IMG/VR virus record: IMGVR_UViG_2675903606_000025
Length of the DNA stretch: 4,062 nt
Strand: one strand, 5' to 3'
From: a virus
Taxonomy: Duplodnaviria; Heunggongvirae; Uroviricota; Caudoviricetes
How positions within the stretch are numbered: the first letter of the stretch is position 1; each line of letters begins with the position of its first letter. The position numbers are program-made. Below, piece by piece: positions 1-3,000 of the stretch.

Positions 1-3000
1 AAGACGGCAGAAAGTGCAGCCGGTAATGCAGCCAGGGATGCAACGACCGCAGCAGAAAAAGCCCGGGAGTCAGCAGAAAGCGCACAGTCAGCGGAACAAA
101 GCAGGATAGCGGCGGAAGAAGCCGTAAACCGCATCCCCACCGTGGTGGGGCCTCCCGGGCCAAAGGGTGAACCGGGTCCCGCGGGTCCTCAGGGGCCGAA
201 GGGAGATAAAGGAGAGCGTGGCGACACCGGCCCGGCAGGGGCAACCGGTGAAAGGGGGCCGGCAGGTGATGCTGGTCCGGCAGGCCCGCAGGGGCCGAAA
301 GGCGACAGGGGAGAGCGGGGAGAGACCGGTCTGACGGGAAATGCAGGTCCACAGGGGCCAAAGGGAGATACCGGTGCGGCAGGTCCGGCAGGCCCACAGG
401 GACCGAAAGGAGAAACAGGTGCGGCTGGCCCGGTGGGGGCAACCGGACCTCAGGGGCCGAAAGGCGACCCGGGGGAGACACAAATACGGTTCCGTCTGGG
501 GCCGGGAAACATTATTGAGACAAACAGCAATGGCTGGTTCCCGGATACAGATGGCGCACTCATCACCGGACTGACCTTTCTTGACCCCAAAGATGCCACA
601 CGGGTTCAGGGTTTTTTTCAGCATTTGCAGGTCAGGTTTGGTGACGGGCCATGGCAGGATGTTAAGGGACTGGATGAAGTGGGCAGTGATACAGGCAGAA
701 CAGGAGAATGACATGAACATACTAAAAAAACTTATGCAGCGTCTGTGCGGTTGCGGAAAGCATGATGACCGTGAAAACGGGGAGTTACTTACAGCACAGC
801 TGCGACTGGGACCGGCAGACATTCTGGAGTCAGATGAGAATGGCATTATCCCGGAGCAGGCCAGGGTAATCACGCAGGTGGTGATACTGGATGCGGATAA
901 AAAGCAGATACAGTGCGTGGTAAGACCGCTGCAAATTCTGCGTGCTGACGGGACGTGGGAAAATATTGGCGGGATGAAATAGCCGACGGGTTCACAAAAA
1001 CCGGAGTCCGGCTCCGGTTTTTGTGTTGCAATGTCCGGGGGATATTTGTTAAGTAGATGATAGAGGGGCTAATTCAACAGGGAGATAAATTAATGCCGAT
1101 AAATCTGACATCTTATTTGGGGTTGCAGGGGGCGAAAGTTGTCCCGGCAGTTGTTTTTTCTAAAATTTAGTCTTGTTGGGGTAAATGACATATGCCATTG
1201 ATAACATCCAGCATTTCATTAAATGTTGCTTTGCAAAGTATTGAAATATTACGTGAAGCTGCCAGACAAAACCTGATAACGAAAGATATTACTATAAATG
1301 GGCAGAAAGTTGGTATTCATTATTATCAACGCCCTGACGTTTTTTTAGTTTCTGGTTTTAAGCTAGTGAATTGGTGGCACTGAAATATATAAAACCATAT
1401 TAAGTATCAATATGAAAATTCCCGTTCTCCAACCTGGCTTCAACTTTTTTGCCCCTGCTGGATACTCTGCTGCCGTTGCTCCTAATCGTGCTGAAAATGC
1501 CTATGCGGATTACGTTTTGGATATAGGCAAGCGAATACCGCTTTCCGCAGCAGATTTAAGCAACGTATACGAAAGTGTAATTAGCGCCGTCCATGACAGC
1601 CGTAGCAGGCTCATCGATCAGTATACGGTCGATATGATTGGCAACACTGACTTGATGCGTTGAGCCGATTACAAACATTTCGTGATGCCGTAAGCTATGG
1701 CATTCATAATGAGGAGGTACACATTGGTTGCATTAAATACAGAAACGAATACGAGCTTAACGGAGAATCTGCTATCAAAATTGATGATATTCAATCACTA
1801 ACCTGTAACGAATTATATGGATACGATGTCGGGCAAGAACCAATTCTCCCCATTTGCGAGGCAGGAGAAAACGAGAACGAAGAGCCTTATGTCAGTTTTA
1901 GTGTTGCGCCAGATACTGATTCTTATGAGATGCCATCGTGGCAGGAAGGACTGATTCACGAGATTATTCATCATATTACTGGGGCCAGCGATCCATCTGG
2001 AGATAATAATATAGAGCTAGGACCCACCGAGATTCTCGCACGTCGTGTCGCTCAAGAGCTGGGATGGAGTGTTCCTGACTTCAAAGGATATGCAGATCCA
2101 GAACGAGAAGCTCATCTTAGACTACGTAACCTGAATGCCCTTCGACAGGCTGCCATGAGGCATGAAAAGAATGAGAGGGCTTTCTTCGAAAGACTGGGTA
2201 CGATCAGTGACCGATATGAGGCGAGTCCTGATTTCACAGAGTATTCCGCTGTGTCTAACATAGGATACGGATTTATCCAGCAACATGATTTTCCAGGGGT
2301 GGCTATCGACGAGAATTTACAGGATGTAAATCAGATCCAACTGTATCATGGTGCTCCTTATATCTTTACATTTGGGGATGTGGACAGACACAATTAGCGC
2401 TGATTCGTCTTTACAGTTACATAGGGTTACTACTCATAGATATTAACGGAGTTGATGATGGGCAATCGTGCAACATTGTATTGTATGTAAAGGCAGAGCC
2501 CCGAATTTTACTGTTGTAAGTGGGCCTGGCGGGAATGGTATCGCCAGCATCATTGGCTTGGGTCCAGTAAAAAGAGACGCAGAAAGATGCACAATAGGCA
2601 CTACGCGTCATGCATGGATTAGGTCGCTCATCATTTACACAGTACTGCTAAAAAATTATTAAGGAAAGCGCGGCACTTCGTATGTAAGAACGTGTCGCGG
2701 CTGTCTGATGGACGTTCGATAGCGCGAGTTTGAATGAAAATCAGCCGGAGATGATTTTACATAATTGCTACGGAATTATTCAATACAGGAATTACTTGTG
2801 TATGCATGGATTGACCTGAAATATTCCCGAAAATTTCTCTAAAAAACTCGAAAAAAATGGTAACTAATTGAATGTATTAATATGTAATAGTATGTGTTAG
2901 AGATTAAAAGATGAGCATGAATTTATTTAACACATTAATTCTAAAAGATTTTGTCGTTTGTTGACGAATACAGGAATCGTGTTCGGTCTCTTTTTATCTG

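Follow-up and report, generated by a model that had tools for sequence, protein, structure and literature searches.

Temperate phages and islands integrate into the 3' ends of transfer RNA (tRNA) and transfer-messenger RNA (tmRNA) genes (e.g. Williams 2002, as cited in PMC3603311). The stretch of DNA considered here, IMG/VR virus record IMGVR_UViG_2675903606_000025 (4,062 nucleotides, Caudoviricetes; hereafter the window), holds the junction between a prophage and the terminator of a regulatory small RNA (sRNA) gene, sdsR, also called ryeB, which in Escherichia coli K-12 lies between yebY and pphA and overlaps the antisense gene ryeA (sraC). Integration of phage PhiW104 at ryeB/ryeA in Salmonella enterica DT104 is said to have been described by Balbontin, Figueroa-Bossi, Casadesus and Bossi in 2008 (J Bacteriol 190:4075). 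A later paper states that PhiW104 integrates in the last 23 bp of Salmonella ryeB and that lysogeny lowers ryeA expression and raises that of ryeB (PMC7380047, citing Balbontin et al. 2008), and several papers treat the ryeA/ryeB locus of Salmonella as an insertion hot spot and phage attachment site (PMC3333887, PMC3603311, PMC7380047). RyeB is also a named integration target in catalogues of islands and prophages (PMC10111431). The literature searched contained no explicit description of integration at sdsR in E. coli; the E. coli junction is nonetheless present in hundreds of public genomes, reference enterohaemorrhagic E. coli (EHEC) strains included. The window thus shows a known type of sRNA-targeting prophage junction at an ordinary, already described integration site.

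The prophage junction in the sdsR terminator

Positions 2963-2995 of the window are very probably the right attachment site (attR, P-O-B') of an nleC-carrying lambdoid prophage with a tyrosine integrase of the lambda/HK022 type, for which the sdsR terminator hairpin serves as attachment site. A phage P arm, with a GA that lacks the following C, meets the original chromosomal sdsR end there, the joint lying inside the core. The boundary falls at 2964/2965, with phage DNA (tail fibre, nleC, P arm) on the left, K-12-identical chromosome on the right, and a 16-bp core shared with the empty site. The original prediction had proposed a prophage integrated into the 3' end of sdsR, leaving only the last 30 or so nucleotides of an SdsR-like sequence, hairpin and U-run, next to AT-rich phage-type DNA, and this description has proved correct. 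The transcription start (+1) of sdsR lies at position 1429 of the K-12 reference locus (L001), as placed from primer BHI+11R (PMC6610125), and window positions exceed those of L001 by 1464. The 3' ends of SdsR were mapped to +100 to +102 by rapid amplification of cDNA ends (PMC6610125). A full sdsR would span window positions 2893-2994, of which only +73 to +102 (2965-2994, 30 nt) are present; the sequence of 2963-2995 reads GACGAATAC-AGGAATC-GTGTTCGGTC, then TCTTTTT. The alignment to K-12 that had been proposed as a check gave no collinear complete sdsR upstream of 2963, and the sigma-S promoter and 5' seed region of SdsR are absent from 2893-2964, which is phage P-arm DNA without K-12 similarity. 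When 2940-3130 was searched by megablast against 5,426 complete E. coli genomes, nearly all of them, K-12 included, matched only from query base 26, window position 2965. Identity to K-12 is 100% from 2965 into pphA, and because the 30 nt begin this contiguous block of 166 bp, their match to sdsR is not a chance one.

Covariance models lead to the same picture. In the window SdsR (RF00111) stays below threshold, at 21.3 bits where the gathering score is 38, with model positions of about 66-100, the terminator part, alone truly aligned, and SraC/RyeA (RF00101) on the minus strand reaches 27.1 bits against 37, the hairpin part alone being credible; even at permissive Rfam thresholds, neither the whole window nor 2850-3060 yielded a full sRNA. 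The K-12 locus between yebY and pphA scores 114 bits for SdsR and 175 bits for SraC/RyeA. Scores under both gathering thresholds, together with a fold no more stable than shuffled sequence (z = -0.76), are what a phage-borne or chromosomal intrinsic terminator with a coincidental resemblance to the SdsR 3' end might give, but the 30 nt are identical to K-12 sdsR +73 to +102, continue unbroken into 136 further K-12-identical bases up to pphA, and lie within the 114-bit SdsR match of K-12. A terminator unrelated to sdsR is refuted by this alignment (L001 1501-1530), and its probability is negligible.

The hairpin at the junction is nevertheless not the native one. Its 5' arm is one C short of that of K-12 (GAC-GAATAC vs GACCGAATAC), as had been foreseen from an imperfect arm and a crossover within the hairpin, and its folding energy is -7.8 kcal/mol vs -15.8 for the native terminator; with its T-run it still registers as terminator-like in a terminator scan. 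The features of the window are as follows (positions, strand, description).

1-982, plus strand: tail fibre genes, namely a protein with an N-terminal domain and collagen-like repeats (1-711, cut by the window start) and a C-terminal-domain protein (714-982)
1412-2397, plus strand: the cargo gene nleC, which encodes a zinc protease (type III effector), located at the prophage end and interrupted by a 1-bp deletion near 1649
2400-2964, no strand: AT-rich, non-coding DNA of about 560 bp at the right prophage end, the P arm of attP; 2760-2964 is found only in prophages at the sdsR site
2963-2995, plus strand: displaced chromosomal 3' end of sdsR (ryeB), a terminator hairpin with one bulge and then the U-run; true sdsR-derived bases are 2965-2994 (+73 to +102)
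2965-2980, no strand: att core, the 16-bp block CGAATACAGGAATCGT, common to attB, attL, attR and attP in alignments
2965-3033, minus strand: retained 5' 69 nt of RyeA (SraC), including 30 nt antisense to the SdsR terminator (100% K-12 identity; primer mapping of PMC6610125)
3034-3129, minus strand: chromosomal intergenic DNA with the pphA leader and the sigma-70 ryeA promoter, which maps between -80 and +10 of RyeA (K-12 identity; PMC6610125)
3130-3786, plus strand: pphA, serine/threonine phosphatase, parted by the prophage from the sdsR promoter (gene calls, K-12 comparison)
Window end, minus strand: yebW, its beginning only, after pphA (gene content reading)

The window is the opening 4 kb of a 14-kb draft contig, CYAZ01000074.1 (assembly GCA_001284505.1), which continues beyond it with yebV, rsmF, yebT and proQ. 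The G+C content is 38% across 2400-2964 and 27% in 2760-2964, and a 134-bp intergenic stretch separates the hairpin from pphA. Within the tail fibre N-terminal-domain protein, positions 142-480 encode a long series of collagen-like Gly-X-Y repeats, which may be the reason why the draft assembly breaks there. The nleC gene differs from the copy in the O111:H8 strain 8B, to which it is otherwise 99% identical, by the 1-bp deletion near 1649, giving open reading frames of 83 and 245 amino acids, so that it would be a pseudogene unless the draft assembly is in error there. Further right, many Stx1/Stx2 phages have right ends with 83-89% similarity to 2665-2760, and a hairpin, GCGCGGCAC...GTGTCGCG, lies at 2667-2699. 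A weak match of 2641-2699 to the Shigella sRNA family CssrB, at 24 bits vs a gathering score of 76, was rejected as covering part of a hairpin.

Attachment sites and integrase in related prophages

The closest complete genomes, among them O111:H8, O103:H2 and several Shiga toxin-producing E. coli (STEC) or pig and cattle isolates, are 98% identical across the whole window (98.3% at best) and keep the order tail fibre, nleC, junction, pphA. In O111:H8 8B a 53.5-kb lambdoid prophage, with genes for int, xis, recombination, immunity, replication, lysis, terminase, head and tail, extends from an att core at the left attachment site (attL), beside int/xis, to a junction of the type seen in the window. 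Just after yebY, at attL, this genome has full matches to SdsR (118 bits) and SraC/RyeA (179 bits), and the 3' arm and U-run of its attL sdsR read GTATTCGGTCTTTTTTTAATTG where K-12 and the window junction have GTGTTCGGTCTCTTTTTATCTG. The attL copy of sdsR in 8B is thus complete, with a 3' arm and U-run that come from the phage, in line with the possibility, raised in the original prediction, that the full sRNA is reconstituted at the other prophage end; two more species-representative genomes (Shigella flexneri and E. coli) have an integrase 94% identical, with a full SdsR some 130 bp beyond the 3' end of int. For annotation, this means that the 30-nt fragment should not be named sdsR and that the real gene is to be looked for at attL.

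The att sites were compared in an alignment of attB (K-12), attL, attR (window and 8B) and the intact attP of a deposited phage, PP818812.1, in which 100% of the reconstructed 616-bp attP is covered at 90.4% identity and the integrase is 98% identical. The exchange of arms around CGAATACAGGAATCGT is evident in this alignment; the block reaches from the distal 5' arm through the loop to the first bases of the 3' arm, and attP bears an imperfect mimic of the final 35-45 bp or so of sdsR. On the left, the absence of the C marks the phage variant; on the right, G2981 and TCTCTTTTTATC mark the chromosomal one. Across the five aligned att sequences, a Salmonella relative among them, ACAGGAATCGT is unchanged and the loop AGGAATC is invariant, with the flanking inverted arms CGAAWAC and GTRTTCG tolerating substitutions. 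From this pattern the loop (2972-2978) is likely to be the 7-bp overlap, with CGAATAC and GTGTTCG, the arms of the hairpin, as presumed core-type Int sites. The prophage family encodes a tyrosine integrase that shares about 41% identity with HK022 Int, and an excisionase gene adjoins int. At about 2823-2838 the window has a candidate arm-type Int site, TTCCCGAAAATTTCTC. The motif CYCGAAAWTT, likewise a candidate arm-type site, has a single copy in the P arm (window position about 2826) and three tandem copies in the P' arm, and is present in the phage and Salmonella sequences as well. The Salmonella element has an identical core and a partial integrase 74% identical. Record PP818812.1 (44470-47508) is titled 'Actinobacillus phage vB_Apl-pPE4', yet its attP mimics an enterobacterial sdsR terminator, and Actinobacillus looks doubtful as its host.

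Recombination would have occurred inside the shared block, most likely at the edges of the 7-nt loop between the inverted-repeat arms. One product would be attL, next to yebY and int/xis, with a complete sdsR whose 3' arm and U-run are supplied by the phage; the other would be attR, in which the original chromosomal sdsR 3' end is joined to the P arm as a promoter-less 30-nt remnant in a weakened hairpin.

The junction is carried by a small share of the species. Among the 5,426 complete E. coli genomes the sdsR-pphA locus is uninterrupted in 5,189, and the attL junction occurs in 228, as does the attR junction (about 4%). Carriers include the reference O26:H11 strain 11368, O103, O45 and O111 strains, and some O157:H7 and O55:H7. 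An integrase scan of one-genome-per-species contigs gave two loci only, both in Escherichia/Shigella, and the attR/attP core with its left arm had no exact-pattern match in the same contigs; occurrence beyond E. coli is supported by one Salmonella phage record and by the literature. In NZ_CP075003.1 (2396500-2403000), and likewise in strains 00_3230, 03_3503 and 7_11_88A, tandem prophages occupy the sdsR site; in these cases the match to the window ends at 2996 and a second integrase and excisionase of the same family directly follow the nleC phage.

Several points weigh against an attR of the kind proposed, or against parts of it. The strand-exchange positions are drawn from sequence identity only. 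Position 2969 of the window is T (CGAATAC, the chromosomal variant), where the attR of O111 8B and the phage attP have A (CGAAAAC), which points either to a phage polymorphism or to a slightly different crossover or repair outcome. The regulatory consequences set out below are extrapolated from K-12 and Salmonella work. The contig begins inside a tail fibre gene, so that attL, int and an intact sdsR lie beyond its reach, and with its nleC frameshifted the prophage may be decaying. The last two points would also suit a degraded remnant with a stranded attR, whose left part, with attL and possibly sdsR, had been lost or rearranged, leaving the fragment as the gene's only trace and no functional sdsR by yebY. 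Rearrangements do occur at such prophages: in NZ_CP027766.1, NZ_CP027552.1 and NZ_CM168014.1 attL and attR are 0.7-1.1 Mb apart and on opposite strands, an arrangement that indicates large inversions of the chromosome that broke within the prophage. A contig break says little, however, since repeated tail fibre genes are a usual place for draft assemblies to end, and in complete genomes attL and attR are equally numerous; a full sdsR was present at attL in all relatives inspected, and the sdsR query found a match in all 5,426 genomes. Such a loss in this strain is therefore improbable, and the attR of an otherwise ordinary prophage is the preferred reading.

RyeA, SdsR and pphA in lysogens

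In K-12, SdsR is kept in check by RyeA and the ryeA promoter, and the pphA transcript is mainly read-through from the sdsR promoter, PsdsR (PMC6610125). The ryeA promoter lies within the 80 bp upstream of the RyeA +1, as delimited by a -80/+10 construct (PMC6610125). In the window both the promoter region and the start are present on the chromosomal side of the junction, where 2965-3130 is identical to K-12; the +1, placed by primer BHIA+10R (PMC6610125), corresponds to L001 1569 and window position 3033 on the minus strand, and the RyeA probe of the same study, CGTGTTCGGTCTCTTTTTATCTG, to 2979-3001. The earlier expectation of a RyeA transcript that begins on the pphA side and extends into phage DNA agrees with this arrangement. 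RyeA would start normally, and after 69 native nucleotides (3033 to 2965) transcription would enter the phage P arm, giving, in place of the normal 270-nt RyeA, a chimeric RNA that would pair with the last 30 nt of SdsR only. Full antisense overlap with the SdsR of about 102 nt is not kept, the complementarity downstream of the RyeA start being limited to 30 nt (2965-2994), and a terminator scan found no evident minus-strand terminator in the phage P arm. Sigma-70 pattern-scan hits at 2967-2938 were not relied on, since the scan misses the mapped ryeA promoter both here and in K-12.

The sdsR copy at attL would lose RyeA-mediated degradation and transcriptional interference from the ryeA promoter (PryeA), so that SdsR should rise, as reported for the Salmonella PhiW104 lysogen. 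The P' arm at attL (locus L004, 14612-14639, minus strand) has TTTGCA-16-TACAAT aimed antisense into sdsR, a possible replacement promoter for a RyeA-like RNA; it comes from the same scan, unreliable in that it misses the K-12 ryeA promoter. Further downstream pphA would lose read-through from PsdsR, with a prophage of about 50 kb between them, and would be left with transcription that exits the prophage through the weakened hairpin. The original prediction included neither the fact that this integration site is already described nor the separation of pphA from PsdsR, its main promoter (PMC6610125).

Lysogens of this kind would be natural ryeA-truncation and pphA-uncoupling mutants, because in K-12 RyeA and PryeA restrain SdsR and PsdsR drives pphA (PMC6610125). 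That prophages at sdsR systematically rewire a stress circuit of attaching-effacing and Shiga-toxigenic E. coli, with SdsR freed, pphA removed from sigma-S control and a chimeric RyeA-phage RNA produced, is a tentative proposal that is rather unlikely to hold. If it does, the rewiring could alter mutation rate, efflux, porin expression or persistence in lysogens; the effect of such lysogeny has apparently been examined in Salmonella only.

The remnant might in addition have acquired a function of its own, either by terminating or attenuating transcription that leaves nleC, and so insulating pphA, or through the chimeric RyeA as an antisense RNA or sponge for the SdsR 3' end or for phage transcripts. 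The hairpin and T-run are still terminator-like, the ryeA promoter region is intact, and the junction is 98.7-99.3% conserved in the best 40 of the 228 carrier genomes, which comprise many serotypes. Recent site-specific integration and competence for excision predict such conservation without any extra role, however, and the stability of the hairpin is halved; a function of this kind is unlikely, and a plain attR is the preferred reading.

Comparison with known integration systems

The organisation of the recombination site follows that of the lambda/HK022 Int-Xis systems: xis lies beside int, attP is ordered as tail/b-region, P arm, core, P' arm and int, and candidate arm-type motifs are repeated, one in the P arm and three in P'. 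Unlike in lambda, the core and the chromosomal site are sdsR and not an attB between gal and bio, and the arm-type sites and the overlap are inferred here.

In its target, the E. coli prophage resembles PhiW104 most closely. Both have their attachment site in the last 23-30 bp or so of ryeB/sdsR, internal to ryeA, so that ryeB is rebuilt and ryeA altered, and both make use of a locus that is a recurrent hot spot for foreign DNA. The two differ in that the host here is E. coli, of lineages of the enteropathogenic (EPEC) and EHEC type, and the phage is lambdoid with the effector gene nleC.

More broadly, the arrangement parallels integration into tRNA and tmRNA genes, where likewise a conserved small-RNA stem-loop is the target, the element carries a copy of the 3' end that restores the gene at one junction, and the other junction keeps the displaced 3' fragment; with regard to the position within the target, integration at sdsR resembles insertion into tRNA anticodon or T-loops. 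In contrast to tRNA and tmRNA genes, however, the target is the terminator of a regulatory sRNA that overlaps an antisense gene, and restoring the sense gene therefore still breaks its antisense partner as well as the downstream read-through operon of pphA.
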